Below are positions 383 to 64,000 of a stretch of DNA of 64,000 bases, piece by piece. The notes under the pieces are model-generated. The model had not been told where the DNA came from. It was given only the letters and a program-made list of their open reading frames with translations, and searched no databases. Within the stretch, counting starts at the first letter, position 1; every line of letters begins with the position of its first letter. The stretch spans positions 6,602-70,601 of the forward strand of contig JBAZMZ010000003.1 in assembly GCA_041649495.1 (NCBI GenBank), in the 5' to 3' direction. This stretch comes from Minisyncoccota bacterium (lineage in GTDB: Bacteria > Patescibacteriota > Minisyncoccia > Phycocordibacterales > XYD1-FULL-46-19). The position numbers were made by a program, and so were the translations under genes.

Positions 383-1387
383 ATGATTGGCAAAAAACCT
401 CCTAATCAGCTAAAGCAGGAGATTGCTTGGCTAAAACGGGAGAAGTATGGCTTGGGAGAAGTCCAACTTCAAGTGAGCCCGAAGTTGGACTTCGCGCAAG
501 CTAGACAATTTAAAAAAGACCTCGAACGGCTCAACGATGGTGAGCCGTTAGATTATGTCATCGGCTGGCGAGATTTTTTGGGTTGTCGGATTGACCTTTC
601 GGCCAAACCGCTCATCCCGCGCGCCGAAACCGAATTTTGGGTCGAGCAGGCGATTAAAGAGCTCGGCGAAATGGGCGAGGCGGTTAGACGAGATCGTTTT
701 TTGTGTAACGAAATGGGATCTCGCAAAACTAAAACCGGAGTACGAAATCATTTCAACTTCGCGAAACCGAACAAAGCTACTTGCGAAGTCGCATTTAGTT
801 CCACAAAAAACGACTTCTCACGACCGCTTCGAGTCCTTGACCTCTTTGCTGGCTCGGGTTGCATCGGTCTCGCGGTGCTCAAACATTGTCCTAATGCTCA
901 CGTGACCTTCGGTGAAAAAGATCCCAAACTTTGCGCGCAAATTAAGAAAAATCTCAAACTGAATCAAATTCCCGCTAGTCGCGCCAAAGTCAGTCAAACC
1001 AACCTATTTAAGCCTTATTTATCGAAGTTCGACTTCGATACCTTACAAAAAGGTGGAAAACTTGATCGGTTTGATGTTGTCTTGGCCAATCCGCCTTATG
1101 TCCCAACCAGAAAGAGTAAAGTGCAAAAATCAGTTAAAGATTGGGAACCAAAAGAAGCACTTTTTGCTGGCAATGATGGTTTGGTTATCATCAAAAAATT
1201 TCTGAAGCAAGCCAGGCTGCATCTTGAGTCAGCCTGCCCTGAGCGTAGTCGAAGGGGTAAAATTTATCTCGAATTTGGCTATGGGCAAAAATTGGCTATC
1301 ACCAAATTACTTAAGCAATTCGGCTATTCAAACTGGCAATTTCACCAAGATCAATTCGGCAAATGGCGCTGGGTAGTGGTAGAATAA
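383..1387 (+). CDS. prmC: release-factor glutamine N5-methyltransferase PrmC/HemK, carrying in-frame repeat inserts
   Basis: [17 protein letters not shown]-binding motif and NPPY catalytic motif ([10 protein letters not shown]); about 45 extra residues sit between the N-domain and the SAM motif and contain palindromic repeats. Confidence 0.8.
458..493. repeat. 36-bp palindromic mini-element GAAGTCCAACTTC-AAGTGAGCCC-GAAGTTGGACTTC, in-frame in prmC
   Basis: Perfect 13-bp inverted arms around a 10-bp spacer; the same architecture recurs at 15604, 18204, 11818 and 41015. Confidence 0.85.
785..817. repeat. 33-bp palindromic mini-element GAAGTCGCATTTAGTTCCACAAAAAACGACTTC, in-frame in prmC
   Basis: Related to GAAGTCGGACTTAGTTACACAAAGTACGACTTC at 9618 and 11751. 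Confidence 0.75.
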
Positions 1388-1395
1388 GTAAAACC

Positions 1396-1998
1396 ATGTT
1401 TAAAAATAAAAATTGGCAAAATCGTTGGATAAACAAAAATCGCTGGCCCGAGAGCCTGTTTGCTAAACGGGTTTGGCTATTTCTCAAAAATAAGAAGGTC
1501 AAAACTCTGCTTGATCTCGGTTGTGGCGGTGGTCGCGATTCGCAGTATTTTTCTCGCCGAGGGCTTAAAGTTGTGGCTCTTGACATCCTTCGGAGTGAGG
1601 ATCAACAAGAAAAATTAAAACAAAATAATATTCCCTTTGTCAAAAGCGACATTAGGAAGCTTAAACTTAAGGGCAATTCTTTTGATGTCATTTATGCCCA
1701 TCTTAGCCTCCACTATTTTAATAATAAAACGACCGACAAAGTTTTTAGTAATTTACACAAAATTCTTAAGCCGGGCGGTTATCTTTTTATAAAATGCAAA
1801 TCGGTTAATGACCCGCTCTATGGCAAAGGCAAGAAAATAGAAGAGAATTTTTACGAAGAAGAACATTTGCGCCACTTCTTTTCTAAAGATTATATGAGAG
1901 AAAAATTAAAGAACTTTAAGATTATCAAGATTACTCAAACCAGCACCTTTAAACGTCCCAGCAAAGCTTCATTTATTGAAGCTTTTGCTCAAAAATAA
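1396..1998 (+). CDS. class I SAM-dependent methyltransferase
   Basis: LLDLGCGGGRDSQYFSRRGLKVVALDI (motif I), FDVIYAHLSLHYF, LKPGGYLFI; ATG at 1396 avoids overlap with prmC. Confidence 0.7.
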   Translation: MFKNKNWQNRWINKNRWPESLFAKRVWLFLKNKKVKTLLDLGCGGGRDSQYFSRRGLKVVALDILRSEDQQEKLKQNNIPFVKSDIRKLKLKGNSFDVIYAHLSLHYFNNKTTDKVFSNLHKILKPGGYLFIKCKSVNDPLYGKGKKIEENFYEEEHLRHFFSKDYMREKLKNFKIIKITQTSTFKRPSKASFIEAFAQK

Positions 1999-1999
1999 A

Positions 2000-3274
2000 A
2001 TGAAAAAAACAGAAAACAATTACGATGTTATCGTTATCGGGGGCGGACCGTCAGGGATGATGGCGGCGGGGGGGGCTGGAGAGCGGGGCAAGAAAGTTTT
2101 GTTGTTGGAGAAAAATGAACGGCTTGGCGACAAGCTCAAGGCAACCGGTGGTGGGCGATGCAATATTACCAACGCCGAGGAGGACAAGGAGGCTCTACTT
2201 CGTCATTATGGTCAGGCCAAAGATTTTCTCCAATCGCCTTTTTCTCAATTTGGTGTCAAAGATACTTTTGCTTTTTTTGAAAACCAAGGACTGCCCTTGG
2301 TGGTTGAGGCACGGAAGCGCGCTTTCCCGGCGACGCAAAAAGCGGGGGATGTTTTTCGAGTTCTTGAGAAATTTATGCGAACTGGCAAAGTTGCCATCAA
2401 AACTGGTGCCCAAGTTGTTAAGTTAATTAAAGATAATGATCAAAAAGTCACTGGGGTGATTCTGGCCAATCACGAGAAGTGTTTTGCCTCCAATTTTATC
2501 TTCGCCACTGGCGGTCTCTCTCATCCCGAACTGGGCGCAACGGGTGATGGCTTCGCGTGGCTTAAGTCGCTGGGCCACACCGTCAAAGAATCTTCGCCCG
2601 ATATTGTGCCCCTCGCGGTTAAAGAAAAATGGGTGAAGGATCTCTCGGGCGTGTCGCTTTCGTTTATGAAAATTACTTTTTTTCTGGACGGCGTGAAAAA
2701 GTTTTCGAAAAAAGGCAAAATTCTTTTTACGCACTTTGGTTTGTCAGGGCCACTTATCTTAAATTCGGCCCGCGAAGTAAAATATTTGATTCAAACTGGA
2801 GGCATAGTCACAGCGCAAATTGACACTTGTCCCGACACCGATATTGGCTCGCTTGAGAAGCAAGTGATTAAAATTTTGGATCAAAACAAAAATAAAAGTT
2901 TGAAAAATGTTCTGCCCGAAATTGCCCCTGACGGTCTGGCTCCCGCTCTGATTAATTTACTAACTAAAAAAACCTGGCCGGTCAGGCTAGATTTAGCTAA
3001 AAAAGTTCACAGCCTCACCAAAGAAGAGCGTCGTGTGATTGTCGATTTGCTCAAAGCTCTCCCCCTCACTATCACTGGTCTCATGGGCTTCGATCGAGCG
3101 GTGGTCTCGGATGGGGGAGTTGATTTGGCTGAAATTGATACCCGCGCCATGCGTTCGCGTCTCCACCCTAATATCTATGTCACGGGCGATCTTCTCAATA
3201 TCTCTCGCCCCTCCGGTGGCTTCTCCCTCCAACTCTGCTGGACGACGGGATATGTCGCGGGGAAGAGTGTGTGA
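2000..3274 (+). CDS. HI0933/BaiN-family NAD(P)/FAD-dependent flavoprotein
   Basis: N-terminal YDVIVIGGGPSGMMAAG dinucleotide-binding motif followed by KATGGGRCNITN, typical of the HI0933-like family; internal ATG at 2000 taken as start. Confidence 0.75.
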   Translation: MKKTENNYDVIVIGGGPSGMMAAGGAGERGKKVLLLEKNERLGDKLKATGGGRCNITNAEEDKEALLRHYGQAKDFLQSPFSQFGVKDTFAFFENQGLPLVVEARKRAFPATQKAGDVFRVLEKFMRTGKVAIKTGAQVVKLIKDNDQKVTGVILANHEKCFASNFIFATGGLSHPELGATGDGFAWLKSLGHTVKESSPDIVPLAVKEKWVKDLSGVSLSFMKITFFLDGVKKFSKKGKILFTHFGLSGPLILNSAREVKYLIQTGGIVTAQIDTCPDTDIGSLEKQVIKILDQNKNKSLKNVLPEIAPDGLAPALINLLTKKTWPVRLDLAKKVHSLTKEERRVIVDLLKALPLTITGLMGFDRAVVSDGGVDLAEIDTRAMRSRLHPNIYVTGDLLNISRPSGGFSLQLCWTTGYVAGKSV

Positions 3275-9558: not shown

Positions 9559-10665
9559 ATGAAAACTTTATTTTTTGAATTAGAAAATTGGGAACGAGAG
9601 TTTATCGAAGCAAGTTCAAAGTCGGACTTAGTTACACAAAGTACGACTTCTAACTTGCCGACCGAACCAGAAGTCGTATCTCGCGTAGCCAGATCCGACT
9701 TCGAGTTCGTTGAAGGAGTTTTGGCTGAGGAGACGATTGCCAAATTAACCGACGAGCAAAAAGAGGCCGAGATTATTTCTATTTTTGTGGATTCGGTGAT
9801 AAATGCGAAAGTTTTAGAGAGCTTCCCGAATTTAAAAATGATTGCGACGCGGTCAACTGGTTATGACCATATTGAACTTGAAGCTTGTCGAGCCAAGGGA
9901 ATAATGGTAGCCAATGTGCCAAGCTATGGCGAAGAAACGGTGGCTGAATATGCTTTTGCTTTAATGCTCACCTTGTCGCGCAAAATTTTTGAGAGTTATG
10001 ACCGGATTAAAGAAACGGGGAGTTTTGACCTTACTGGGATGCGTGGTTTTGATTTGAATGGCAAAACCTTGGGAGTGATTGGCACGGGCAAAATCGGCAA
10101 GAATGTCATTGAAATTGCCAATGGCTTCAACATGAAGGTGATTGCCTATGACAAATTCCCCGATGAAGCTTATCGGCAAAAAATGGGTTATGAGTATCTC
10201 TCGTTTGATGAAGTGCTGGCCCAGTCTGACATTTTGACGCTTCATGTGCCTTTTTTGCCCGAAAATGAACATTTGATTAATGCCGAAACCATCGCCAAGA
10301 TGAAAAAAGGCGTTTATTTAATCAACACCGCGCGCGGAGCTTTAGTTGACACGGATGCTTTGCTTAAAGCTCTCCAATCTGGGCAAATTGCTGGTGCTGG
10401 TCTAGATGTGCTGGAAGAAGAGGGGGTCATTAAAGATGAATTAAATTTTCTCACTCGTCTCTCGTCAGGGCAAGCCAGTGCTCATCAAAATGGTCATAAT
10501 TTTAAAACGATTTTAGAGAACCACGTCTTGGTCGATCTGCCGAATGTTGTGATCACGCCCCACAACGCTTTCAATACTTGGGAAGCGCTCAAACGAATTC
10601 TTAATACCACGCTTGAAAATATCAAAAGCTTCTCCGCCGGCATCCCCCAAAATTTGGTGAAATAA
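9559..10665 (+). CDS. D-isomer-specific 2-hydroxyacid dehydrogenase, carrying in-frame repeat inserts near the N-terminus
   Basis: GVIGTGKIGKNV NAD-binding motif, catalytic-domain signature (R..E..H context); N-terminal region 9617-9704 consists of two palindromic mini-elements. Confidence 0.8.
   Translation: MKTLFFELENWEREFIEASSKSDLVTQSTTSNLPTEPEVVSRVARSDFEFVEGVLAEETIAKLTDEQKEAEIISIFVDSVINAKVLESFPNLKMIATRSTGYDHIELEACRAKGIMVANVPSYGEETVAEYAFALMLTLSRKIFESYDRIKETGSFDLTGMRGFDLNGKTLGVIGTGKIGKNVIEIANGFNMKVIAYDKFPDEAYRQKMGYEYLSFDEVLAQSDILTLHVPFLPENEHLINAETIAKMKKGVYLINTARGALVDTDALLKALQSGQIAGAGLDVLEEEGVIKDELNFLTRLSSGQASAHQNGHNFKTILENHVLVDLPNVVITPHNAFNTWEALKRILNTTLENIKSFSAGIPQNLVK
9618..9704. repeat. 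two adjacent palindromic mini-elements in-frame in the dehydrogenase gene
   Basis: AAGTCGGACTTAGTTACACAAAGTACGACTTC, then GAAGTCGTATCTCGCGTAGCCAGATCCGACTTCGA; the latter recurs at 61565 and 63965. Confidence 0.8.
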
Positions 10666-11085: not shown

Positions 11086-12423
11086 GTGAGCGATTTTAGT
11101 TTTAAAATTGAGAAGAAGATGAAGACTGGCCTCGGGCGGGCTGGGGTGATTCACACGGCGCATGGCGATATTGAAACGCCAGCTTTTGTGACGGTGGGTA
11201 CCAAGGCGACGGTTAAAGCGCTGACGCCAGAAATGGTTAATAGTTTGGGTGCATCCGTAGTTTTGGCTAATACTTATCATCTCTATTTGGAACCCGGCGA
11301 TGAATTGGTGAAAAAGGCGGGCGGACTTCATCGTTTTATGAATTATGATGGGCCAATGATGACCGACTCGGGCGGGTTTCAAGTTTTTTCGCTTGGGGCA
11401 GCGTTCGGCGAAGGGGGAATTAGTAAGCTGATAAATGGCTTAACATCGGAAGTCGAACTTCGGAACATTAGTAAAATGGGGATAAATGGAGAGGGTGTTG
11501 CTAAACTAGCTAAGATTGATGAGGATGGCGTCACTTTCAAATCAGTGATTGATGGGTCGGAACATCGCTTCACACCCGAGCGCTCGATGCAAATCCAGCA
11601 TAATCTGGGCGCTGATATTATTTTTGCGTTTGATGAATGCACTTCGCCCTTGGCCGATTATGATTATCAGAAAGAGGCGATGGCGCGAACGCATCGTTGG
11701 GCGGAACGGTCGTTAAAAGAGCATCAAAGACTGATTCGCGAGGCAAATTCGAAGTCGGACTTAGTTACACAAAGTACGACTTCGAATCACCCCTCGCTCG
11801 ACGAGTCGGGTGAGCCCGAAGTCCAACTTCTGGGCACCTCGAAGTTGGACTTCAAGCCGACTACTCGACGATCCACTCTCCCGGCTTTGTTCGGTATTGT
11901 TCAGGGGGGTCGGCATCAGGATTTACGCGAAGAAAGTGCACGAATGATTGGGGCGATGGACTTTGCTGGGTTTGGTATTGGCGGGTCGTTTAATAAAGAA
12001 GATATGGGCACGGCCGTTGGTTGGGTCAGTGAAATTTTGCCGGAAGATAAGCCCAGACATTTGCTTGGGATTGGTGAGCCGGCGGATATTATTGAAGGCA
12101 TCAAGAATGGCGCCGATACTTTTGATTGTGTGACACCGACGCGGATGGCGCGCAATGGGACTTTGATGGTTAAAAATGGCAGGTTAAATATTCTTAACGC
12201 TCAATATCGCGAAGATTTGGGTCCAATTGAAAAAGGTTGTGGTTGCTATGTTTGCCAACTTAACTCTGACGGTACCGCCAAATATTCACGCGCTTATCTC
12301 GCCCACCTCTTTCGCGCCAAAGAAATCTTGGCTTCGACTCTGGCTTCGATTCATAACCTCTATTTCTTGATTCATTTGACCAAGCAGATTCGCCAAGACA
12401 TTTTAGCTGAAAAATTTAAATAA
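11086..12423 (+). CDS. tgt: queuine tRNA-ribosyltransferase with a ~45-aa in-frame repeat insert
   Basis: LGRAGVIHTAHGDIETPAFVTVGTKATVKALTPE, LANTYHLYLEPG, FGIVQGG, zinc site CGCYVC; region 11745-11880 (SKSDLVTQSTTSNHPSLDESGEPEVQLLGTSKLDFKPTTRR) is built from two mini-elements. Confidence 0.85.
   Translation: MSDFSFKIEKKMKTGLGRAGVIHTAHGDIETPAFVTVGTKATVKALTPEMVNSLGASVVLANTYHLYLEPGDELVKKAGGLHRFMNYDGPMMTDSGGFQVFSLGAAFGEGGISKLINGLTSEVELRNISKMGINGEGVAKLAKIDEDGVTFKSVIDGSEHRFTPERSMQIQHNLGADIIFAFDECTSPLADYDYQKEAMARTHRWAERSLKEHQRLIREANSKSDLVTQSTTSNHPSLDESGEPEVQLLGTSKLDFKPTTRRSTLPALFGIVQGGRHQDLREESARMIGAMDFAGFGIGGSFNKEDMGTAVGWVSEILPEDKPRHLLGIGEPADIIEGIKNGADTFDCVTPTRMARNGTLMVKNGRLNILNAQYREDLGPIEKGCGCYVCQLNSDGTAKYSRAYLAHLFRAKEILASTLASIHNLYFLIHLTKQIRQDILAEKFK
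11750..11853. repeat. tandem palindromic mini-elements in-frame in tgt
   Basis: CGAAGTCGGACTTAGTTACACAAAGTACGACTTCG at 11750-11784 and GAAGTCCAACTTCTGGGCACCTCGAAGTTGGACTTC at 11818-11853. Confidence 0.85.
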
Positions 12424-15156: not shown

Positions 15157-17817
15157 ATGGAAGAACATAAAATCAAAATTAAGGGGGCGCGAACGCATAA
15201 CCTTAAAAATATTAATTTAGAAATACCGCGCAATAAGCTAGTGGTTTTTACGGGTTTGTCGGGGTCGGGGAAATCAAGCCTGGCGTTTGATACGATTTTT
15301 GCCGAGGGTCAAAGACGCTATGTCGAATCCTTGTCGGCTTACGCGCGACAATTTTTGAAGCAATTGCCTAAGCCTGACGTGGACGAAATTTCGGGTTTGT
15401 CGCCAGCGATTTCGATTGATCAAAAATCTCGTTCGCATAACCCACGCTCAACGGTGGCCACGATTACCGAAATTTATGATTATTTGCGCGTGCTTTATGC
15501 CCGCATTGGTCAACCCCATTGTCCGGTTTGTGGCACGCGGATTGAGAAATTGTCGCACGAGGAAATTGTGAATTTTGTGAAAGCTAAGATGGATGAGGCT
15601 ACCGAAGTTGGACTTCGGGCTCATCGAAGTCCAACTTCTTCCGCCTTAGCCGCCTCTGTTACTTTACTTGCGCCGGTTGTGAGGGGCCGAAAAGGCGAGT
15701 ATTATCAATTGCTTTATGATTTAATCGAAAAAGGTTACTCCGAAGTTTTGATTGATGGCAAAAAGCACAAATTGCGCGAACGAATCATTCTGACTAAAAC
15801 CAAAAAGCACGATATCGATGTGGTAATCGATGAGATACCTTTAGCGGACTTTAATCAAAAGGTCACCAAGAACTCCCCTTTAAAAACTTCTCAAGGGAAG
15901 TCCTTGGCGACGATTGTGGCTTCAGCTAAATCTGACTCGGCTAATGAAAGATTGACTGAAGGGGTTGAGCGAGCGCTTAAAGAAGCCGATGGTTTGGTTA
16001 AAATTGTTATCAATGGCGAGATCTCTTTGTTGTCTTCAAAATTCGCTTGCCCCAACGACGGCTTCTCCTTCCCCGAAATTGAACCACGTCTTTTTTCGTT
16101 CAACTCGCCTTATGGCGCTTGCCCAGAGTGTCACGGTTTGGGCACCAAACATATGTGGGGCAATGAGATTTGCGAGGTTTGCCAAGGCGCGCGTTTGCGA
16201 CCGGAGGCCTTGCAGGTTAAAATCCCTTCGGCCAGCTCAGGGCAAGCTCTTAACATTGTCGAGACAGTTAACCTGTCAATTGGCGAAGCCAAAAAACTTT
16301 TCGAGACACTTAAACTTACGCCGAAAGAAAAAGCGATCTCCGAAGTTTTATTAAAAGAAATTGGCGCGCGATTAAAATTCTTAAATGATGTTGGCTTAGA
16401 TTATGTTGAGTTAAGCCGACGAGCCGACACGCTTAGTGGTGGTGAGGCTCAACGAATTCGTCTTGCTTCGCAACTTGGTTCGCGTTTGGTGGGCACGCTC
16501 TATGTGCTTGATGAACCAACAATTGGTTTGCACGCGCGTGACAATGATAAATTGATTAAGACCTTACTCGAGTTGCGTGATTTGGGCAACTCTATTGTGG
16601 TGGTTGAGCACGACGAGGACACGATTTTCGCTTCGGATTATTTAGTTGATATTGGACCTGGCGCCGGTGTGCATGGTGGGCATATTGTAGTGGCTGACGA
16701 GACTGACAAACTTTTAACCTCCAAGAAAAATGATTATCACTCACTAACCGTCGATTATCTGCGGGGTGATCTTGAAATCCCCGTACCGGAAAATCGGCGG
16801 ATTAAAGATAAGGGGACGATCAAAATTCGCGGTGGCAATATCTTTAATATCAAAAATCTCAATGTTGATATCCCTTTGGGGAGATTGGTGGCAATTACGG
16901 GCGTTTCGGGTTCGGGCAAATCGTCATTGATTTATGAAATTTTACACAAAAATTTACAGGGTCGGCTTGAACGACGTTATCGCACTAACGAGCTCTTTAA
17001 TTGTCACGAGTTTAGCGGGAGCGAATATTTAAGCCGAGTGGTAATGATTGACCAGTCACCAATTGGTCGCACCCCACGTTCGAATCCGGCCACTTATACT
17101 GGGGCCTTTACCTTTATTCGCGAATTATTGGCGGAGACGGCGCTGGCCCGAGCTCGGGGTTGGAAGGCGTCCCGCTTCTCCTTCAACGTGGCGGGGGGTC
17201 GGTGTGAGGCTTGTCAGGGCAATGGCGAAGTCGCGGTCGAAATGCATTTTTTGCCAACCATCTATGTCCCCTGCGATATTTGTCACGGAACAAGGTATGA
17301 AAAAGATACGCTTGAGGTGCAGTACAAGAAAAAAAATATCAGTCAGATTTTGCACCTGACGGTGGAAGAGGCGCTCGAATTTTTTAATGACATTCCCGCC
17401 ATTCATGATCGATTAAAAACGCTTAATGAAGTGGGGCTTGGCTATTTAGAATTAGGTCAATCGGCTACCGATTTGTCTGGGGGTGAAGCGCAACGGGTTA
17501 AGATTTCATCCGAACTTTATCGTCCTCATACTGAACGGACCTTGTATATATTAGATGAGCCGACTATTGGTCTCCATTACGAAGATGTTAAAAAGTTAAA
17601 TGAGATTTTGCAAAAATTAGTGGAGAAGGGGAATACGGTGGTGGTCATTGAGCATAATATGGAGGTAATTAAATGTGCCGATTATATTATTGATTTGGGG
17701 CCCGAAGGTGGGCTCGGTGGTGGAAATTTGGTGGCCAAGGGCACACCCGAAGAAGTGGCTTACGCGCCCGGGTCTCACACCGCCAAATATTTGAAGAGAG
17801 CCTTGCGGAAAAAATAA
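15157..17817 (+). CDS. uvrA: excinuclease ABC subunit A, with in-frame repeat inserts
   Basis: Two ABC ATPase modules ([14 protein letters not shown]; [11 protein letters not shown]; LSGGEAQR twice) and Zn-finger Cys clusters; inserts at 15604-15638 and 16227-16247. Confidence 0.9.
15604..15638. repeat. palindromic mini-element GAAGTTGGACTTC-GGGCTCATC-GAAGTCCAACTTC, in-frame in uvrA
   Basis: Same arms as the prmC copy at 458-493, in reversed order. Confidence 0.85.
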
Positions 17818-17821: not shown

Positions 17822-19207
17822 ATGAAGTCTCAAGACTTAAAAAAATACAAATTACCTGATTTGCCAGGGGTCTATTTTTTTCAACGGGATCGAGAAATTC
17901 TTTATGTTGGCAAAGCCACTTCACTCAAAGATCGCGTGAAGAGTTATTTTGCGGGTGATTTGGGAGAGACGAGAGGCCCCAAGATTACCCAGATGCTTAC
18001 TCTCGCCAATAAAATAAAGTGGCAAGAGACCGATTCTGTTCTCGAGGCTTTATTGTTGGAGACTGAATTAATTAAAAAGCATCAACCAGTTTATAATACC
18101 CGAGAAAAAGACGACAAGAGTTATTGGTTTGTTATTATCACCGATGAAGATTTTCCTCGGGTTCTCCCGATCCGTGGTCGTGAGCTAGAAGGGCGAGCTT
18201 TGGGAAGTCGTACTTCAAGTGAGCCCGAAGTCCGACTTCAAAAAACGAAGCCCGAATTTGTTTTTGGGCCATTTCCTTATGGTGGGGAATTGAAAGAGGC
18301 TCTTAAAATAATTAGGAAAATTTTTCCGTATCGAGACAAATGCTTGCCTTGCGTCGCTTCAGCGAAGCAGGGTGTGCCTTGTCGGTTGAGAGGTGAGTCC
18401 TCAAGTGAGCCCGAGGTCTCTCCTCGTAACCGATGCCGACCTTGCTTCAACCGGCAAATTGGTCTTTGCCCTGGTGTTTGCACGGGTGAAATTTCAAAAA
18501 TTAATTATCGAAAAATTGTGCGAAATATTGAGTTGCTTTTTAGGGGTAAGAAAAAAGAGATAGTAAAAAAATTAGAGCAAGAGATGAAGTCGCTGGCGAA
18601 AAAACGAGAATTTGAGAAAGCGAGTGAGGTGAGAGATCAAATTTTCGCCCTGAATCATATTCGAGATGTGTCTTTATTAAAAAAGAGAAGTTCGATTGGG
18701 CGAGATCGTCCAATAAGCCCTTACTCAATCCGTCTTGAGGCCTATGACATCGCTCATTTGGCGGGGACAAATACGACGGGGGCAATGGTGGTGTGGCAAA
18801 ATGGCGAATTAGATAAGCATGAATATAAAAAATTTAAATTAAGGGGGGTCAAAGCTGGCTCGCCTGACGATCTGGCTAATCTTCACGAGATTTTGGAACG
18901 ACGCTTTAATCACCCTGAGTGGCCTCAACCAGATATTATTGTGGTGGATGGCAATCAGGTGCAGGTTGAGGTGGCAAAAAAAGTAATTAAGAGTCAGGTG
19001 CGAAAAATGACTTCGGGCTCACCTGAAGTCGCGTTTCGCACCCCACAAGTCATTGCCGTGACTAAAGATGATAAACATCGAGCCTCAAGATTAATTGGCG
19101 ATCCGGCCATCATCCGCGATTATCGTCAGGCCATTATTGAGGTTAATGCTGAGGCTCATCGTTTTGCACTGGCCTACCATAGAAAATTACGCCGGCGATT
19201 GGTATAA
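17822..19207 (+). CDS. uvrC: excinuclease ABC subunit C, short form (GIY-YIG, UVR and RNase H-like domains; no C-terminal HhH), with two in-frame repeat inserts
   Basis: GIY-YIG N-terminus (LPGVYFFQRDREILYVGKATSLKDRVKSY), UVR motif, endoV/RNaseH-like region (EAYDIAHLAGTNTTGAMVV..DIIVVDGNQVQV); only 461 aa; inserts at 18204-18239 and 18389-18427. Confidence 0.8.
   Translation: MKSQDLKKYKLPDLPGVYFFQRDREILYVGKATSLKDRVKSYFAGDLGETRGPKITQMLTLANKIKWQETDSVLEALLLETELIKKHQPVYNTREKDDKSYWFVIITDEDFPRVLPIRGRELEGRALGSRTSSEPEVRLQKTKPEFVFGPFPYGGELKEALKIIRKIFPYRDKCLPCVASAKQGVPCRLRGESSSEPEVSPRNRCRPCFNRQIGLCPGVCTGEISKINYRKIVRNIELLFRGKKKEIVKKLEQEMKSLAKKREFEKASEVRDQIFALNHIRDVSLLKKRSSIGRDRPISPYSIRLEAYDIAHLAGTNTTGAMVVWQNGELDKHEYKKFKLRGVKAGSPDDLANLHEILERRFNHPEWPQPDIIVVDGNQVQVEVAKKVIKSQVRKMTSGSPEVAFRTPQVIAVTKDDKHRASRLIGDPAIIRDYRQAIIEVNAEAHRFALAYHRKLRRRLV
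18204..18239. repeat. palindromic mini-element with AAGTGAGCCC spacer, in-frame in uvrC
   Basis: GAAGTCGTACTTC-AAGTGAGCCC-GAAGTCCGACTTC. Confidence 0.8.
18389..18427. repeat. variant mini-element GAGGTGAGTCCTC-AAGTGAGCCC-GAGGTCTCTCCTCG, in-frame in uvrC
   Basis: Identical 39-bp copy in leuS at 41068-41106. Confidence 0.8.
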
Positions 19208-38472: not shown

Positions 38473-41400
38473 ATGGGAAAAAAATCTAAGGGGAGCAAAT
38501 ACGATCATTTAAAAATAGAGTCTAAATGGCAACGTGAGTGGAGTCGTTCCAAAACTTATCAAACTACCGAAACGACCGGTTCGACAAGCTCACGGCAAGA
38601 ATCTAAACCCAAAGCTTATGTTTTAGATATGTTCCCGTATCCGTCGGGGGAGGGTTTGCATGTCGGCCACCCCAAGGGTTATATCGCCACGGATGTTTAT
38701 TCGCGCTTTAAACGAATGAGTGGTTTTAATGTCTTGCACCCCATGGGTTGGGATGCTTTTGGTTTACCGGCCGAGAATTATGCGATTAAAAATAAAATTA
38801 ATCCGGCCGTGGCGGTGAAGAAGAATATCAAACATTTTAAATCACAGATGGAAAAGATTGGGCTCGATTATGATTGGTCTCGCGAAATCAACACCACCGA
38901 CCCCAAATATTACAAATGGACCCAATGGATTTTCTTACAATTGTTCAAGCGGGGATTGGCTTACCAATCGAATGAGCCGATTAATTGGTGCCCGTCTTGT
39001 CAAACTGGTTTAGCCAATGAAGATTTGGAGACCCGTTCGACAAGCTCAGGGCAAGCGGCCGTCTGTGAGCGTTGTGGTTCGCTCGTGATCAAAAAACCGA
39101 TCCGCCAATGGGTGCTCAAAATTACTAATTACGCTGAACGGTTATTGACTGATTTGGACGGCTTAAATTGGCCCGAATCAATCAAAGAATCACAAAGAAA
39201 TTGGATTGGCCGAAGCGAAGGGGCTGAAATTGATTTTCCCCTTCAAACTGGACCCCTTAAGTTTGTCATCCTGCACGGATGGAAAAGTAATAGCCGGCGT
39301 TGTTTTATTCCCTGGCTCAAGCGCGAGCTCGAAGAACGAGGCCACGAAGTAGTCGCCTTGGATCTTCCTCATCCCGTCGTGCCCAATATTGCAGAGCAAG
39401 TTGATTACGTTTTATCTAAAGTGACGTTTGACGCCAACACCATAATTATCGCTCATTCACTGGGCTCAATCGCGGCTTATCGAATTCTCGAAAAATTAAA
39501 AACGCCCATCAAGAAATTAGTCATTGTCGCTGGCTTAATTGAGCCAAAATTTCGAGACAAGGCCCGACCCGAAGCCAAATATCTCTTAAGTTGGAAATTT
39601 AATTTGGCTAAAATTAAAAAGAATGCTGGCCAAATTGTCATTCTTGAAGATCAAAATGACAATATTATCCCCAAAGGCGAATCACGGGTGATCCAACAAG
39701 CCTTAGGGGGCGAGGTTTACCAACTCGAAGCCCAAACGGCTCACTTCTGCGGGTCCGTTGAGCCGTTAGTCCTAGGGCATAGCCTAGACCGAGTCAAGAT
39801 CTTCACCACCCGCGCCGACACCCTTTTTGGTGCCACTTATTTAGTCCTCGCGCCAGAACATAAATTGATTTCTCAATTAAAAAAAGAAATTAGCAATTGG
39901 GTTGAGGTCACAAAATATATTAAACAAGCAGAAAAAAGAACCGAGATCGAGAGATCGACTGAAGGCCGAGAAAAAACAGGGGTCAAACTCGAAGGCGTGA
40001 GAGCGATTAATCCGATCAATAATGAAGAAATCCCAATTTTTATTGCCGATTATGTCTTACCTGGTTATGGCACGGGCGCAATTATGGCCGTACCGGCCCA
40101 CGACGAACGCGACCATCAATTTGCCAAGAAATTTGATTTGCCAATTGTGCCGGTAATTATCAAGGATTTGCCGACCACTCTTGATCATGTCGCCGAGGCT
40201 TATACTGGTTCAGGAAAAATGGTTAACTCCGGCCGATGGAATGGCCTTGATAATGAGCAAGTGGTCGATCCAATGATTAAATTTGTCCGCGGGAAAAAAG
40301 TGATTCGCTACAAATTACGCGATTGGGTTTTTTCACGCCAACGTTATTGGGGCGAACCGATTCCAATTGTCCACTGTGCTAAGTGTGGTCCAATGCCTGT
40401 GCCCGAAAAAGATTTGCCGGTCAAATTGCCGGCAGTTAAAAGTTACGCCCCCACCGGCACCGGCGAATCGCCTCTGGCCAACATTAAAAGCTGGGTCAAT
40501 ACCAAATGTCCGGCTTGTGGCGGGCCAGCCCAACGCGAGACCAATACCATGCCCCAATGGGCGGGTTCGTCTTGGTATTATTTGCGCTATATCGACCCTA
40601 AGAACGACAAGGCTCTCGCTGATCCTAAGAAATTAAATTATTGGTCACCAGTCGATATGTATGTGGGAGGCACCGAGCATGCGACTCGTCACTTAATCTA
40701 CGCGCGATTTTGGCATAAGTTTTTGCAGGATATCGGCATCGTCAAAAATTCCGAGCCATTTGCCCAACTTAAAAATCAAGGTTTAATTTCTGGTTCTGAT
40801 GGGAGGAAGATGAGCAAGCGTTGGGGTAATGTCATTAACCCCGACGATATTATTAAGAGTCATGGCGCCGATACCTTGCGGGTTTATGAGATGTTTATGG
40901 GTCCGTTTGAACAAGGAGTGTCGTGGAGCACCGACAACCTAATGGGCGCGCGCCGTTTTGTGGAGAAAATTTGGCGGTTGAACGGGAAAGTCGTTCCCGA
41001 GGCTAAGGTTGTGCGAAGTACGACTTCGGGCTCACTTGAAGTCGGACTTCTCACGACTGAATCAGCTTCCGAGGTGAGTCCTCAAGTGAGCCCGAGGTCT
41101 CTCCTCGGAAACAATGACTTCCTTTTGCACAAAACCATCAAACAAGTGACCGACGATATCAATCGCTTCAATTTTAACACCGCGATTTCGGCCTTAATGA
41201 TTCTCGCCAACGATTGGGACAAACTCAAGCAAATTTCAATCACTGATTTCAAAATCTTGCTTAAATTATTGGCCCCGTTGGCCCCACATTTGAGCGAAGA
41301 ATTATGGCATAATTTGGGCGAGAAAAAATCAATTCATCTCTCAACCTGGCCCGTGGCCGATCCACAAAAATTGATAACGAAAGAGGTCAAAATCGTGGTC

Positions 41401-44831: not shown

Positions 44832-46067
44832 TTGAGAGTGACTAGGAAGAAAAAACGAGTTTTCGTCGGTATGAGTGGGGGAGTTGATAGCTCGGTTTCG
44901 GCCGCTTTATTAAAAAGGGCCGGTTTTGAGGTAATCGGGGTATTTATTCGAGTCTGGGAGCCCAGTGGTTTTGTTTGTCGCTGGCGTGAAGAGAGGCGAG
45001 AAGCCAGACGAGCCGCCGCTCATTTAGATATTCCACTCTCAACTCTCGATTTAAGTCGTGAATATAAGAAAAGGGTGGTTGATTATTTCATTGCTGAATA
45101 TAAGTCTGGCCGAACCCCCAACCCCGACGTGATGTGCAATAAACATATTAAGTTTGGCGTATTTTATGATTGGGCCATGAAAAATGGCGCGGACTTTGTC
45201 GCCACGGGGCACTACGCACAAATTTGCAACAAATTTGTGCCAAAATTTCAAACCATAAATTCTAAACTCGAAACAAGTATTAAATTCCAAAGTTTAAAAT
45301 TTAAAAAATTAAATATTGTTTCGGATTTAGAAATTAATATTTCGAATTTGCCAAGTTTTTGCCAGAGTAAAGACTTGGCCAAGGATCAAACTTATTTCTT
45401 GTGGAATCTTAAAGCCGAGCAACTTGCCAAAATTCTTTTTCCCGTGGGCCAATACACCAAACCGCAAGTTCGCGCTTTAGCCAAGAAATTTGGCTTGCCC
45501 AATGCTGAGAAAAAAGACAGTCAGGGTTTATGCTTTATCGGTAAAATTGATTTTAAAGATTTTCTCAAGCGGGAAATTTATGGAAAAAGGGGGACTTGCC
45601 CCGAGCGGAGTCGAGGGGGTGTTTTAAACGAGCAGGGAAAAGTAATCGGCCAACATGACGGCGCGATGTTTTTCACTTTAGGCGAACGCCACGGTTTCGA
45701 AATTTTCTCGCAGACATCAGACTCCAAACCCTATTACATCGTCGCTAAAGATATTAAGAAAAACACGCTCACTGTTTCTCCTAATTTTAATCAAGGGCAG
45801 GCCTTGACTTCTGAAGTCAAAATTGAAAAAACTAATTGGATCAACCAGTCAAGCGACCTGGAGGTTAAACCTCTGGGCGCCTCGAGGTTTAACCTCCAAG
45901 CCAGAGTCCGTTACCGTCAACCGCTTCAAGCTTGCCACTTGACGCAGGTCGACAATAAAAAAAGCACCGCTACCATAAGCTTCTCTAAACCACAACTCGC
46001 CGTCTCGGGCCAATCACTGGTCCTCTACGACCAAAATATCTGTCTCGGTGGGGGAATTATTGTTTAA
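44832..46067 (+). CDS. mnmA: tRNA 2-thiouridylase MnmA, with a low-complexity insert and a CPERSRGG repeat
   Basis: PP-loop VGMSGGVDSSVSA, KDQTYFL, catalytic Cys context; ~50-aa AT-rich insert (~45230-45380) before KDQTYFL; repeat at 45597-45619. Confidence 0.85.
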   Translation: MRVTRKKKRVFVGMSGGVDSSVSAALLKRAGFEVIGVFIRVWEPSGFVCRWREERREARRAAAHLDIPLSTLDLSREYKKRVVDYFIAEYKSGRTPNPDVMCNKHIKFGVFYDWAMKNGADFVATGHYAQICNKFVPKFQTINSKLETSIKFQSLKFKKLNIVSDLEINISNLPSFCQSKDLAKDQTYFLWNLKAEQLAKILFPVGQYTKPQVRALAKKFGLPNAEKKDSQGLCFIGKIDFKDFLKREIYGKRGTCPERSRGGVLNEQGKVIGQHDGAMFFTLGERHGFEIFSQTSDSKPYYIVAKDIKKNTLTVSPNFNQGQALTSEVKIEKTNWINQSSDLEVKPLGASRFNLQARVRYRQPLQACHLTQVDNKKSTATISFSKPQLAVSGQSLVLYDQNICLGGGIIV

Positions 46068-46429: not shown

Positions 46430-48235
46430 ATGACTTCTGAAGAAATCCGGCAAAAGTTTTTAAAGTTTTTTGAAGAAAGGGGACATCAGGTGATCCCCTC
46501 GGCCTCGCTCGTGCCCAGCGAATATGGCGACAATGGCACCCTCTTCACCACCGCTGGGATGCAACCATTAATTCCCTATTTATTGGGTAAACCACACCCG
46601 GCTGGCCAGAGAATTGTTGATATTCAAAAATGTGTGCGTACCGGCGATATTGACGAGGTGGGCGATAATCGGCACCTCACCTTTTTTGAAATGATGGGCA
46701 ATTGGAGTTTGGGCGATTATTTTAAAAAAGAATCGATCCCGTGGAGCTTCGATTTTTTAACTAATAAAGACTACGGTCTCGGCCTTGATCCGGCTCGTTT
46801 TTATGTGACGGTTTTCGCGGGCACCCCTTCGACAAGCTCAGGGCAAGCTAGTATTCCTCGCGACGAAGAATCAATCAAAATCTGGCAAGAAGTTTTTGCT
46901 AAATATGGCTTATCTAATGATGTCGCGGATAAAGATGGAGTAATAAAAAAAGACACAAGAATTATCCCACTTGGAGTTGACGACAATTTTTGGATTGCCG
47001 GTGCCACTGGGCCGTGTGGCGGTGATACGGAAATTTTTTATGATACCAAACCCAACGATGGCCCCCTTGATGGCAAATTTAGCGAGTTAGTTGATTCTTT
47101 TCGTTTGATTGAGGTCTGGAATAATGTCTTTATGGAGTTTAACAAGACTCCAGATGGTAAATACGAACCATTAGCGACAAAAAATGTCGACACCGGGATG
47201 GGTTTGGAGCGAATTACCGCGGTAATCAACAAATCAAATATTTTTGAAACCGACTTGTTTACCCCAATTATTAGCGAAATCCGGCAACAATCAATCAAGC
47301 TCAGCGAAAAAGGCATACGGATTGTCGCTGACCACGTGCGAACCGCGGTTTTTATGATTGCCGATGACGTCACTCCGTCTAATACCGACCGAGGCTATGT
47401 TCTCCGTCGAGTAATTCGTCGCGCCGTGCGTTATGCTGACCAAATGCAAGCCGATACTGATATTATGCGCCAAGTCGCCGAAGTGGTGATCGAAAAATAT
47501 AAGACAGCTTATCCCGCCCTCGACCAAAATCGCGAAAAAATTTTTGCTGAATTAAGTAAGGAGGAAGAAAAATTTAGAAAAACACTCGCCAACGGTCTCA
47601 AAGAATTTGAAAAAGGTCACGACCCATTTGATCTTTATCAAACCTACGGTTTCCCAATTGAATTGACCGAGGAATTAGCTCAAGAAAAAGGAATTAAAAT
47701 TGATCGCTCTACTTTTGACGAAAAAATGAAGCAACATCAAGAAATTTCCAAAGCTGGTGCGGACCAAAAATTCAAAGGCGGATTAGCAAGCACGGGCGAG
47801 ATGGAAACAAAATATCACACAGCTACGCACTTACTTTTAGCCTCCTTGCGACAAGTTTTGGGACAAGACATCACGCAAAAAGGGAGTAATATAACAACAG
47901 AGCGCTTGCGTTTTGACTTTAATTGGCCCGAAAAACTTTCGCCCGAACAAATTAAAGCGGTTGAAGATTTGGTTAATCAAAAAATTACCGAGAAAATTCC
48001 CGTCGAAAGGCTCGAATTACCCAAAGACGAGGCCAAAAAACTGGTCACCGTTCTTTCTTTTGACGAATCAAAATATGGCGACACGGTTAAGGTTTATAAA
48101 ATTGGTTCTTTCAGCACCGAATTCTGCGGTGGCCCCCATGTCACCAACACTGGCGATCTTGCTTCGACATTTAAAATTTTGAAAGAAGAAGCCATCTCCG
48201 CCGGCGTGAGACGAATTAAAGCAGTGTTGGAATAA
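46430..48235 (+). CDS. alaS: alanine--tRNA ligase, short form (catalytic plus editing domains, no C-Ala domain), with an SSGQA repeat insert
   Basis: Class II AlaRS N-terminus (FTTAGMQPLIPYLLG, NWSLGDYFK), editing-domain HxxxH (HTATHLL) and CGGPHV; 601 aa versus ~870 typical. Confidence 0.85.
   Translation: MTSEEIRQKFLKFFEERGHQVIPSASLVPSEYGDNGTLFTTAGMQPLIPYLLGKPHPAGQRIVDIQKCVRTGDIDEVGDNRHLTFFEMMGNWSLGDYFKKESIPWSFDFLTNKDYGLGLDPARFYVTVFAGTPSTSSGQASIPRDEESIKIWQEVFAKYGLSNDVADKDGVIKKDTRIIPLGVDDNFWIAGATGPCGGDTEIFYDTKPNDGPLDGKFSELVDSFRLIEVWNNVFMEFNKTPDGKYEPLATKNVDTGMGLERITAVINKSNIFETDLFTPIISEIRQQSIKLSEKGIRIVADHVRTAVFMIADDVTPSNTDRGYVLRRVIRRAVRYADQMQADTDIMRQVAEVVIEKYKTAYPALDQNREKIFAELSKEEEKFRKTLANGLKEFEKGHDPFDLYQTYGFPIELTEELAQEKGIKIDRSTFDEKMKQHQEISKAGADQKFKGGLASTGEMETKYHTATHLLLASLRQVLGQDITQKGSNITTERLRFDFNWPEKLSPEQIKAVEDLVNQKITEKIPVERLELPKDEAKKLVTVLSFDESKYGDTVKVYKIGSFSTEFCGGPHVTNTGDLASTFKILKEEAISAGVRRIKAVLE
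48183..48234. repeat. 52-bp direct repeat, copy 1 (native alaS 3' end)
   Basis: AAGAAGAAGCCATCTCCGCCGGCGTGAGACGAATTAAAGCAGTGTTGGAATAA; near-identical copy at 49283-49334 with 4 mismatches. Confidence 0.85.
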
Positions 48236-57699: not shown

Positions 57700-57949
57700 C
57701 TTGGGGGTTTTTGCTTTTTATCCAATCTATGCAATAATACTGTTAGACAACTCCTGCTTTCTGCCTCAAGTCTTCGGACAGAAACCCACCTTTTTGTGGG
57801 TAGGTTGGGCGAGAAAAGGGCCCCTTTGTGGATGCCCCCCTCGCCACAGGCGGATCGTATTCCACGTCCCGTTTCTGCACGATTCGCGCCGGGGATGTAA
57901 AAAAGGGAGTTGTTTAGGGGGTGTGCCGTTCGCGGCCCCCCGTTTTTTT
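57700..57949 (+). ncRNA. GC-rich ~250-nt intergenic element ending in an intrinsic terminator; candidate sRNA (SRP/6S-type not confirmed) or IS-proximal structure
   Basis: ~55% GC block between rpsI and the transposon; hairpins CCCACCTTTTTGTGGG and GGGGGTGTGCCGTTCGCGGCCCCCC followed by T7 at 57916-57949; no ORF with protein character. Confidence 0.3.
57916..57949 (+). terminator. rho-independent terminator
   Basis: GGGGGTGTGCCG-TTCG-CGGCCCCCC then GTTTTTTT. Confidence 0.6.
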
Positions 57950-57988
57950 ATCCCCAGCAAACCACACTTACCCCCACATTACCAATGT

Positions 57989-58860
57989 ATCGAAGTCGAA
58001 CTTCGGAAGTATGGTAAAAAGTGGATAATTAGAAAAAGTCTTAAGATCTATTATCAAACCCGAGGCTATTCAAACGACAAATGGCCAAGATCCGAAAAGT
58101 CTAAATCTTTTAACCACCTTATCAAATCTTCTTCTGAAAAATCAATGTCAAAACTTGGAAGAAATTCTTTGTTGAGAGTCTTAGAATAATAATTTTGGCC
58201 ACAATAATCAGCCAAGCTGGACCATCGATAACTTAGCAGAAAGTGAGCTGCTCGTTCCCAATCAGAAATCTCCCTTTCCTTCCAATTACTTTCTATCAAA
58301 TCCAAAGGATTAAAATGGATATAAAAAGGCAAATAAGTTAAATATTCCTCATCTTCGATCAACACCGATTTAAATTTACCCTGAAAAAGCGGGCCCACAC
58401 GCTCATGTTTGATATTAAAATAATTAGTATAGCCAGTGCCCATTTTTCGCATGAATTCCGTTAAACCATTTTCAACCAAGGGTCGGACAATCAGATGGAA
58501 ATGGTTAGGCATCATAACAAAAGCCAAAATATCAACCATGCGATCTCGATTGTCTTTATCCTCCAAACGAGTTTGTCCACAAACACGGCTATTCTCAACT
58601 GGTCTAGCATCGTTATACAAAAAAAGACTGTCGGCAAAACGAGAGCGATCAACATTATCAACAAAAATATCCCTTTTTTCCACCCCTCGGTTGAAGACAT
58701 GAAAAATGCCACCAAAATCAGTTTCCTCCATTTTAACCTCCATATGACCTATATAATGTCTTGAAATACTATCGAAGTCGAACTTCGGAAGTATGGTAAA
58801 AAGTGGATAAGTCAGCAAAAAGACTAAAAAACCCTTATTTATCGGAAGTCGAACTTCGAT
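57989..58860 (-). mobile_element. IS200/IS605-family-like element (tnpA only) bounded by same-orientation subterminal hairpins
   Basis: 40-bp direct copies ATCGAAGTCGAACTTCGGAAGTATGGTAAAAAGTGGATAA at 57989-58028 and 58771-58810, plus a third hairpin CGGAAGTCGAACTTCGAT at 58843-58860; the interior encodes a Y1 HUH transposase; hairpin core matches the genome-wide GAAGTC..GACTTC mini-elements. Confidence 0.6.
58066..58743 (-). CDS. tnpA: Y1 (HUH) tyrosine transposase, IS200-like / REP-associated (RAYT-like)
   Basis: HUH motif MMPNHFHLIV and Tyr region GTGYTNYFNIKHERVGPLFQGKF (Y..Q); start taken at MEVKMEETDF because the upstream in-frame codons are the terminal hairpin itself. Confidence 0.65.
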   Translation of the reverse strand: MEVKMEETDFGGIFHVFNRGVEKRDIFVDNVDRSRFADSLFLYNDARPVENSRVCGQTRLEDKDNRDRMVDILAFVMMPNHFHLIVRPLVENGLTEFMRKMGTGYTNYFNIKHERVGPLFQGKFKSVLIEDEEYLTYLPFYIHFNPLDLIESNWKEREISDWERAAHFLLSYRWSSLADYCGQNYYSKTLNKEFLPSFDIDFSEEDLIRWLKDLDFSDLGHLSFE

Positions 58861-61536: not shown

Positions 61537-61564
61537 CTTTTAGGTTTTAGCTGGTAGCTTGTAG

Positions 61565-61599
61565 GTTTAGAAGTCGTATCTCGCGTAGCCAGATCCGAC
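61565..61599. repeat. palindromic mini-element GAAGTCGTATCTCGCGTAGCCAGATCCGACTTCGA, intergenic copy 3' of dnaK
   Basis: Identical to the in-frame copy at 9670-9704. Confidence 0.85.
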
Positions 61600-61698
61600 T
61601 TCGAAACCGGCTCATTAAAAAAATTGAATAGGAAAACCCGCCGGCGATGAACGTCAACGGATAATCCGTTTTCGTCTCGCGCGACGGGTTGTTATGAG

Positions 61699-63467: not shown

Positions 63468-63485
63468 TCGCTAAAAACCCTTATT

Positions 63486-63530
63486 GTGCGATATCCAATC
63501 TCGCACAGTATGGTAAAAAGGGGATAAGTT
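63486..63530. repeat. solo IS-end-like sequence (GTGCGATATCCAATCTCGCAC hairpin plus AGTATGGTAAAAAGGGGATAAGTT)
   Basis: Tail matches the transposon ends at 58005 and 58787; TCGATATCCAATCTCG also occurs at 46081 after mnmA. Confidence 0.6.
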
Positions 63531-63545
63531 AAAAATATTATCAAA

Positions 63546-64000
63546 TGGAAACTTGGATTAAAGTGCGGAACAAAATTATCTCGTGGAAATATCGGTGGAT
63601 TTTGAAACCGATTTTGTTTAAGTTTGATCCGGAAAATGTGCATAATTGGTTTATCGAGATTGGCAAATTTTTGGGGAAATTTAGAGCGACTAATTGGCTA
63701 ACGAAAATTTGCTTTGACTATGAGAATCCAACTCTTGAGCAAGAAATTTTAGGCATCAAATTTAAAAATCCAATTGGGCTCGCGGCCGGCTTCGACAAAA
63801 ACGCCGAGATGATTGATATTATGCCAGCGGTCGGGTTTGGGTTTACCGAAGTGGGATCCGTGACTGGGCGAGCGTGTGAGGGGAACGCGCGACCGCGACT
63901 TTGGCGTCTGCCAAAGTCGCGGGGTTTAATTGTTTATTATGGGCTGAAGAATAATGGGGCGGAGGAAGTCGTACTTCACGTAGCCAAGTCCGACTTCCGA
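63546..64000 (+). CDS. pyrD: dihydroorotate dehydrogenase (N-terminal part; continues beyond window) with an in-frame mini-element at the window edge
   Basis: LGIKFKNPIGLAAGFDKNAE, GFGFTEVGSVT, RPRLWRL; the last 36 bp (GAAGTCGTACTTCACGTAGCCAAGTCCGACTTCCGA) are a mini-element read in-frame. Confidence 0.7.

Follow-up and report, generated by a model that had tools for sequence, protein, structure and literature searches.

Repetitive extragenic palindromic (REP) sequences and the REP-associated tyrosine transposases (RAYTs) that accompany them have been described mainly from Proteobacteria, and the repeats are defined as extragenic. Precedents for in-frame palindromic inserts within genes are the Rickettsia palindromic elements (RPEs) and a set of intragenic REPs. 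The latter often occur as dimers, encode approximately 20 to 30 residues and have been found in uvrA and other repair genes as well as in aminoacyl-tRNA synthetase genes (Di Nocera et al. 2013, PMC3733652); they form the minority of a mostly intergenic set of GTAG/CGTC REPs from Opitutus, Thauera, Rickettsia and others (PMC3733652). In this study, we analyzed a 64,000-nucleotide (nt) stretch (the window) of contig JBAZMZ010000003.1 from a Minisyncoccota bacterium, which carries a family of short hairpin repeats, most of them inside housekeeping genes, together with a RAYT-like transposase gene that is itself bracketed by hairpins. We consider it probable that these elements are REP/REPIN-like hairpin repeats (REPINs being REP doublets forming hairpins) of a genome of the Paceibacteria, a group of the Patescibacteria or candidate phyla radiation (CPR), and that the system is built around this RAYT-like HUH/Y1 tyrosine transposase. 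Our literature search found no report linking REPINs or RAYTs with Patescibacteria.

Hairpin repeats in the window

The closest relatives of the Tgt protein encoded in the window carry the names Candidatus Vogelbacteria or Paceibacterota, which places the genome in the Paceibacteria group, and 9,988 bp of JGI 3300014204 contig Ga0172381_10008547 match the window, including an identical Tgt. Genes are densely packed, predominantly on the plus strand; open reading frames (ORFs) of at least 100 amino acids (aa) alone make up 84% of the window. Sequences used for comparison were those of the syntenic relative L002, whose proteins are 77 to 92% identical to those of the window, of the relatives L128 and L126, and of L127 and L120.

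Profile searches of the window recovered 21 confident copies, comprising 9 type I, 4 type II and 3 type III elements as well as 5 single hairpins (Table 1). An initial annotation of this DNA had reported at least 14 copies and proposed a motif search; the family proved to be real, with practically no counterpart in shuffled sequence. The pattern GAAGTCS-N(5-25)-SGACTTC had 8 exact matches in the window and 0 in 100 shuffles, the 13-nt unit GARGT-NNN-ACYTC occurred 19 times whereas 200 shuffles gave 0.1 on average and at most 2, and a general hairpin scan returned 26 hairpins versus 4 to 8 in shuffled sequence. Assembly artifact, a possibility that the annotation had raised, was rejected because the type I core recurs in 43 independent metagenome contigs from several samples. 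An Rfam scan of the window returned only two tRNA-Ala genes and no family for the repeats.

The dispersed elements are 33 to 48 bp long, with stems of 12 to 19 bp or more that start with GAAGTC and end with GACTTC and with conserved loops of 9 to 10 nt. The loop is AAGTGAGCCC or its complement in type I (TGGGCRCCTC in two of the 9 copies), AGTTACACA in type II and CGCGTAGCC in type III; single hairpins have the form GAAGT-YSR-ACTTC. Types II and III matched each other in opposite orientation in the profile searches; therefore, their stems are common, and the difference between them lies mainly in the loop. The same three sub-types had been distinguished in the initial annotation, but the 13-bp arms given there are too short: pairing often runs on into flanks that vary between copies, and the palindromes commonly exceed the 13-nt arms, extending to 19 bp or more.

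The elements are predicted to fold as single-stranded DNA with energies from -10 to -16 kcal/mol and z-scores between -5 and -8. The hairpin of the type I element is under constraint. Among 52 distinct copies, the loop is near-invariant and the stem is variable yet paired: 84.7% of cells are paired, versus 68% in shuffles, and 16 of 19 stem pairs have changed on both sides. The covariation score of 0.441 (0.150 in shuffled data) was matched by 0 of 500 shuffles, and shifting the register abolished the signal. One column pair (6/43) is unpaired in 37 of the 52 copies. An arrangement of type I as two independent mini-hairpins was rejected as the conserved structure because it showed little covariation compared with the long hairpin. 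The loop motif, with at most 1 mismatch, has 13 matches in the window, 7 of them in elements; the other 6 are close to the shuffle expectation of 7.

Seventeen of the 21 copies lie within ORFs, in eight genes (prmC, 4; the D-2-hydroxyacid dehydrogenase gene, 2; tgt, 3; uvrA, 1; uvrC, 3; leuS, 2; mnmA, 1; and pyrD, 1), and every host frame is open. The four intergenic copies are one 3' of dnaK and three around the transposase gene. The genes named in the initial annotation (prmC, the dehydrogenase gene, tgt, uvrA, uvrC, leuS and pyrD) were all found to carry copies; however, uvrC has three rather than two, and that annotation had missed the mnmA copy (45857-45900) as well as the single hairpins of prmC and tgt. 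Similarly, the reported frame-keeping lengths agree with the open host frames, except that the uvrA copy measures 35 nt and the frame is restored by adjacent bases (a 42-nt insert relative to L002). From these intact frames, it appears that the inserts are translated. There are also signs of recent copying: the core of the type III copy at 9665-9707 and that at 61569-61604 are identical at 36 of 36 positions and lie in unrelated contexts.

DNA as the repeated unit and its inversion in place

A scan of metagenome contigs with the 20-nt type I core recovered 43 further copies from several samples, 38 of which lie in ORFs of at least 60 aa. All 20 host ORFs that were tested are conserved housekeeping genes; the metagenome hosts include dus, miaA, the EF-G gene, lepA, polA, the enolase gene, comEC, the RNase R gene, pfkB-family kinase genes, a class-V aminotransferase gene and leuS. 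The repeated unit is DNA and not a peptide, since one element gives four unrelated peptides through two frames in both orientations (TSSEPEV, 15 copies; TSGSLEV, 15; EVxLQVSPKxDF, 5; and EVRLRAHLKSDF, 3). The third frame contains TGA in both orientations, and its use among the metagenome copies is 0.

Orthologous sites often carry the element the other way round. Relative to L002, the window has the type III element of the dehydrogenase gene and the uvrC elements at 18386 and 18998 inverted, and inversion was also seen in the metagenome contigs, at miaA and dus. Base-by-base comparison of the 18998 copy showed that its arm asymmetries are also inverted, which means that the element flipped as a whole. 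An inversion never creates a stop codon, since the two frames that are open in one orientation are open in the other as well. In L126, the 41-nt unit 3' of the transposase gene has the orientation opposite to that in the window. It is likely that these inversions in place occur via recombination or template switching between the arms.

Inserts in the host proteins

Comparison with solved structures and with relatives showed that, as initially claimed, the copies form extra in-frame segments. Solved Zymomonas Tgt has nothing equivalent to Tgt residues 106-139 and 212-261, PrmC residues 97-146 and approximately 13 residues near 213-226 are lacking in solved E. coli HemK, UvrA residues 148-165 are missing from solved UvrA proteins, and at the UvrC copy near residue 400, 10 residues are missing from the solved UvrC domain. 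The orthologue alignment that had been suggested showed that the inserts are lineage-specific, being variably present or absent in L002 and L128. In L002, the 14-residue UvrA insert is missing, the uvrC and tgt sites hold inserts that differ from those of the window, and there is one insert that the window does not have; the L128 leucyl-tRNA synthetase (LeuRS) is approximately 28 residues shorter where both leuS copies sit. When the window was compared with L002, most of the inspected length differences of more than about 3 residues coincided with these repeat families.

Tgt illustrates this variation. The 26 orthologues compared range from 376 to 499 residues; their N-terminal extensions differ, and nearly all internal length variation is at the same two sites, where related peptides recur (EVQLQVRPKLDF, EVGLQGSPKSDF and SKSDLVIQSTTSN). 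In the AlphaFold model of Tgt (mean predicted local distance difference test [pLDDT] score, 69), the segments below 50 include 99-140 and 228-262, which correspond to both insert regions; the model thus hints that the Tgt inserts may be exposed, flexible segments.

The RAYT-like gene and its hairpins

The transposase gene lies between rplQ-rplM-rpsI and grpE-dnaK-dnaJ. Three hairpins with the stem GAAGT-CGA-ACTTC bracket it, in the general form ATCGAAGT-NNN-ACTTCGAT beside TTATCCAC, and the initial observation that the arms of the dispersed elements match hairpins of a coresident Y1 gene is therefore correct. In L126, a protein with 63% identity is encoded at the same place (rplQ-rplM-rpsI, gene, grpE) and is accompanied by the same three hairpins; the flanking-hairpin layout is also present in L127 and in many of L003-L082. 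There is one copy of the gene in the 64 kb, and some genomes have two diverged or tandem copies.

The RAYT-like family has at least 2,320 members, and those with names are almost all from Patescibacteria; the HUH and YIHxNP motifs are invariant in an alignment of 27 of the 2,320 homologues. Sequence searches of the PDB with the protein or a profile did not separate RAYTs from IS200/IS605 transposases of insertion sequences (ISs), the protein reaching 4er8 at an E value of 0.04, whereas a fold search did. A Foldseek search of the PDB with the AlphaFold model (pLDDT, 79) gave as the best match 4er8 (E value, 2.3e-4; probability, 1.00; target TM score, 0.63), which is E. coli TnpA-REP, a REP-associated tyrosine transposase bound to a REP hairpin; the IS608 and ISDra2 TnpA proteins came next. 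Furthermore, in distant Paceibacteria the flanking hairpins are genome-specific and recur elsewhere in the locus (for example, TCTCCGGAGGTTGAACCTCCGGAGA, TACAAGGTCCGACCTTGTA and ATATCGGACATCCGATGTCCGATAT). Recurrent flank 12-mers were found at 14 of 58 loci compared with 6.2% of control positions (p = 4e-5; at most 20 kb per genome). The likeness to REP/RAYT systems drawn in the initial annotation is thus upheld by the fold match and by flanking hairpins that differ by genome and recur nearby, which is the REP/RAYT signature.

The RAYT-like ORF holds a hairpin of its own in many Paceibacteria (L003 at 3397, L024 at 1506, L030 at 10425, L032 at 10160, L046 at 10135 and L127 at 5187). At least in L127, this hairpin is in frame, in the variable segment N48-V67, and contributes peptides such as EVGLP and IEVELQS. 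The RAYT-like gene of the window has no clear internal copy.

The 8-mer TTATCCAC is found at 58021-58028 and 58803-58810 in the window and also in the flanks in L006, L026, L032, L043, L126 and others. Its enrichment close to RAYT-like genes (within 250 nt) is approximately 8-fold (0.67 versus 0.083 per kb; 17 of 84 loci). This DnaA-box-like sequence may be a recognition tag of the RAYT-like family; neither a dnaA gene nor a replication origin was noticed near its sites among the annotated ORFs, which are not all of those in the window. Between rpsI and the transposase gene, the GC-rich region 57735-57955 has predicted structure on both strands (z-scores, -3.6 and -3.1) and ends on the plus strand with a GC-rich hairpin followed by seven T residues; Rfam has no family for it.

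Table 1. Hairpin elements and the transposase gene in the window
Positions	Strand	Feature	Location and product	Remarks
454..497		Type I, loop AAGTGAGCCC	prmC; encodes 16 aa	DNA fold -15.9 kcal/mol, z-score -5.9
690..725		Degenerate type II, inverted partner of 780-822	prmC	Within 50-aa insert (aa 97-146), none in E. coli HemK
780..822		Type II	prmC; encodes 15 aa	Pattern and profile match
1020..1040		Single hairpin TATCGAAGTTCGACTTCGATA and degenerate GGTGGAAAA tail (repeat family D2)	prmC	Approximately 13 aa extra versus HemK
9613..9655		Type II	N terminus of D-2-hydroxyacid dehydrogenase; peptide SSKSDLVTQSTTSNL	Profile match
9665..9707		Type III	D-2-hydroxyacid dehydrogenase; peptide EPEVVSRVARSDFEF	Core 36/36 identical to copy at 61569-61604; inverted in L002 at same site
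11445..11465		Single hairpin and GGGGATAA tail	tgt, first insert (aa 106-139)	Insert not in Z. mobilis Tgt
11746..11788		Type II	tgt, second insert; peptide NSKSDLVTQSTTSNH	z-score -8.1
11810..11856		Type I variant, loop TGGGCACCTC, preceded by GTGAGCCC half-loop	tgt, second insert (aa 212-261)	Model pLDDT <50 at 228-262
15601..15639		Type I, 9-nt loop, 35 nt	uvrA	Full insert 42 nt (14 aa), not in L002 or solved UvrA
18199..18240		Type I	uvrC; peptide ALGSRTSSEPEVRLQ	Pattern and profile match
18386..18429		Type I, GAGGT/CCTC arms	uvrC	Opposite orientation at same L002 site
18998..19041		Type I, GTGCGAAA...TTTCGCAC arms	uvrC; peptide VRKMTSGSPEVAFRT	Inverted in L002; 10 aa not in solved UvrC domain
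41010..41055		Type I	leuS; encodes 16 aa	Profile match, DNA fold
41067..41111		Type I, GAGGT arms	leuS	With 41010-41055 copy, adds approximately 28 aa absent in L128 LeuRS
45857..45900		Type I variant, 17-bp stem, loop TGGGCGCCTC	mnmA (tRNA 2-thiouridylase)	Hairpin scan, 13-nt unit
57988..58028		41-nt repeat: hairpin CGAAGT-CGA-ACTTCG (57988-58008), spacer, GTGGATAA	3' side of transposase gene
58066..58734	-	RAYT-like HUH/Y1 transposase gene	222 aa	HUH motif PNHFHLI, tyrosine motif YIHFNP
58770..58810		Second 41-nt repeat, identical (hairpin 58770-58790)	Upstream of transposase gene
58841..58860		Third hairpin, ATCGGAAGTCGAACTTCGAT	Adjoins grpE promoter	Kept at same place in L126
61565..61607		Type III	Intergenic, immediately 3' of dnaK	Pattern and profile match
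63961..63999		Type III variant	pyrD; peptide AEEVVLHVAKSDFR	Gene extends past window end

Other features of the window

A second, non-hairpin repeat family, CC(C/G)TTCGACAAGCTCAGGGCAAGC, is present at 2121-2146, 16222-16247, 21098-21123, 38575-38600, 39031-39056 and 46823-46848 and, inverted, at 191-219. Its hosts are an HI0933-like gene, uvrA, ddl, leuS (two copies) and alaS, and where compared with orthologues it adds 6 to 8 in-frame residues such as STSSGQA. The uvrA copy is missing in the L002 orthologue and both leuS copies are missing in the L128 orthologue; a similar LSSGQA segment in the dehydrogenase is likewise missing in L002.

LeuRS contains, at aa 259-439 (39247-39789), an alpha/beta serine-hydrolase domain (PF06821) between the catalytic core and the editing domain. 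The same fusion occurs in the independent contig L120 (67% identical), and in L128 (4001-7060) a 69%-identical hydrolase is encoded by a free-standing 185-aa gene directly upstream of an insert-free 817-aa leuS. UvrA (15157-17817) has no segment matching residues ~305-421 of solved UvrA proteins. UvrC (17822-19207) is short, at 461 aa, and Pfam gave no match apart from the RNase H-like endonuclease domain; the following ORF, which encodes a histidine kinase, begins within the uvrC 3' end. In the AT-rich 48- to 51-kb region, two direct-repeat pairs unrelated to the hairpin family (48182-48239/49282-49339, 91%; 48601-48643/51022-51064, 95%) may mark a local duplication.

Discussion

We postulate that the hairpins are copied as single-stranded DNA and that the RAYT-like protein catalyzes their mobilization, by analogy with TnpA-REP and IS200/IS605 transposases. 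Because at least 84% of the genome is coding, most copies would land in genes. The copies that survive would be those that have a total length divisible by three, lie in variable protein regions and are stop-free in two frames in both orientations; such copies would be read through as hydrophilic segments of 11 to 16 residues and would presumably be near neutral. Once fixed, they would persist across species, invert in place, decay and sometimes be lost.

Several observations weigh against this interpretation. The transposase falls below the cutoffs of both families that it resembles, NCBIfam NF047646 (REP_Tyr_transpos; E value, 1.7e-10; 40.9 bits against a cutoff of 80) and PF01797 (21.9 bits against a cutoff of 23). 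The flanking hairpins of the window do not contain the type I to III loops and share only the GAAGT-NNN-ACTTC stem with the dispersed elements; therefore, the link between the two in the window rests on 13 nt and on analogy. In eight other Paceibacteria loci that were inspected, the RAYT-linked hairpins look more often intergenic, so the strong intragenic bias may be specific to a lineage or family. In the comparison of the window with L002 at uvrA, uvrC and the dehydrogenase gene, no clean empty site, target-site signature or transposition event could be defined; the alignments are ambiguous, since remnants such as GAAACTTCC are present at the "empty" sites. Finally, a loop that is conserved over diverged stems, together with long persistence at orthologous sites, could also mean a selected function.

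It is conceivable, although we consider it unlikely, that the RAYT-like protein plays no part, that replication slippage, quasi-palindrome template switching and gene conversion account for the spread and change of the hairpins, and that the transposase locus is just another site of accumulation. Each 13-nt arm is itself a small palindrome, so that one arm repeats the other in direct as well as in inverted sense, which favors slippage and switching; such processes would also fit the inversion of whole elements at orthologous sites, the pairing that continues into variable flanks, the lack of a target-site signature between the window and L002, and the hairpin copies within the RAYT-like ORF of other genomes. 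However, a mechanism of copying between loci is needed to explain why unrelated genes hold identical copies and why members of a sub-family have one long stem in common although they lie in different genes. Moreover, in many genomes the flanks of the RAYT-like gene are enriched for that genome's own hairpin, and the catalytic motifs of the gene are under strong purifying selection.

We regard as improbable the explanation that the hairpins are selected cis-acting sites, serving nucleoid, gyrase or other DNA-binding proteins, DNA uptake, or RNA processing or stability, and kept in genes because they are useful. Their presence varies between close relatives, and inversion alters the loop sequence in the mRNA, which disfavors a sequence-specific RNA role. 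The loop motif is not enriched outside the hairpins, so that a free-standing uptake signal was rejected, and no T run follows the hairpins, which are thus not terminators. Nevertheless, the loop is near-invariant while the stems covary, genomes whose protein sequences differ by 20 to 35% keep the elements at the same sites in the proteins, and classical REPs are reported to affect supercoiling, transcription termination and mRNA stability (PMC3733652). The recurrence of similar peptides in many proteins might instead suggest protein-level modules, that is, a functional peptide motif spread by duplication. This reading was rejected as extremely improbable: frame usage effectively refutes it, since four unrelated peptides are read from the same DNA in its two frames and orientations, none of them is as conserved as the DNA, and compensatory changes keep base pairing and not residues.

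A wider proposal, which we advance tentatively, is that Paceibacteria have a REP/RAYT super-family of their own, as yet undescribed, comprising more than 2,300 RAYT-like proteins, a flanking hairpin associated with TTATCCAC and, often, a hairpin in the RAYT-like ORF. At least in the present lineage, the dispersed hairpins would be mainly intragenic and a leading source of length variation in housekeeping proteins, flipping in place without breaking the frame. With the probable REP/RAYT system described here, the reach of such systems extends to the CPR, with most copies inside essential genes, and the elements provide a concrete DNA-level cause for many of the ways in which CPR housekeeping proteins differ in length or carry inserted loops particular to one lineage. 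There are practical consequences as well: the repeats may break metagenome assemblies (many RAYT-like genes are on contigs of 1 to 2 kb), and they inflate marker-protein alignments and yield recurring low-complexity peptides in protein databases. Frame-preserving inversion and the hairpin inside the transposase gene offer handles on element recognition and control.

Comparison with known systems

The HUH/Y1 transposase with subterminal hairpins on both sides is reminiscent of IS200/IS605 elements. Here, in contrast, the abundant units are the hairpins alone and the gene is fixed in place; instead of the multicopy mobility of such elements, we found the same locus in the window and in L126 and no second copy in the window. 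The same syntenic place at 63% protein identity therefore argues for vertical inheritance rather than a mobile IS. The inversions recall the flip-flop of chloroplast DNA, in which short inverted repeats repeatedly invert an enclosed segment at orthologous sites; unlike those, the inversions described here are inside coding sequence, and the frame is kept, the two open frames being the same in either orientation.

RPEs resemble the present elements in being in-frame palindromic repeats at fold-compatible sites in conserved genes of a reduced genome, and the initial parallel with them holds for in-frame palindromic insertion in conserved genes. However, RPE-1-type elements are approximately 100 to 150 bp long (about 150 bp for RPEs according to PMC10969869) and have no associated transposase, whereas the elements in this Patescibacteria host are unrelated in sequence, measure 33 to 48 bp and are accompanied by a RAYT-like gene. 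The intragenic GTAG/CGTC REPs share the in-frame placing in ORFs and hosts such as uvrA, other repair genes and aminoacyl-tRNA synthetase genes; because such copies were already known, the suggestion that an in-frame REP-like system would be unusual was overstated (Di Nocera et al. 2013, PMC3733652). Those REPs are tagged, mostly intergenic and from hosts outside the Patescibacteria. In the 20-nt flanks of the 52 type I copies, the tag is absent (GTAG in 3/52 left and 3/52 right flanks; CGTC in 2/52 and 0/52).

The closest resemblance is to the REP/REPIN-RAYT systems, namely E. coli TnpA-REP with its bacterial interspersed mosaic elements (BIMEs) and the Pseudomonas REPINs. The features in common are short, high-copy-number palindromic repeats, an HUH/Y1 protein of the TnpA-REP fold flanked by them, a conserved gene position, doublets of inverted units that form a longer hairpin, and a hairpin sequence that is genome-specific. 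In contrast to the extragenic REPs, at least 80% of the copies described here are intragenic and in frame (17 of 21 in the window and 38 of 43 in the metagenome contigs). Furthermore, the protein scores below the curated RAYT cutoff and belongs to a large Patescibacteria clade of its own, TTATCCAC lies beside the flanking hairpins, and in many genomes a hairpin is carried inside the RAYT-like ORF itself.

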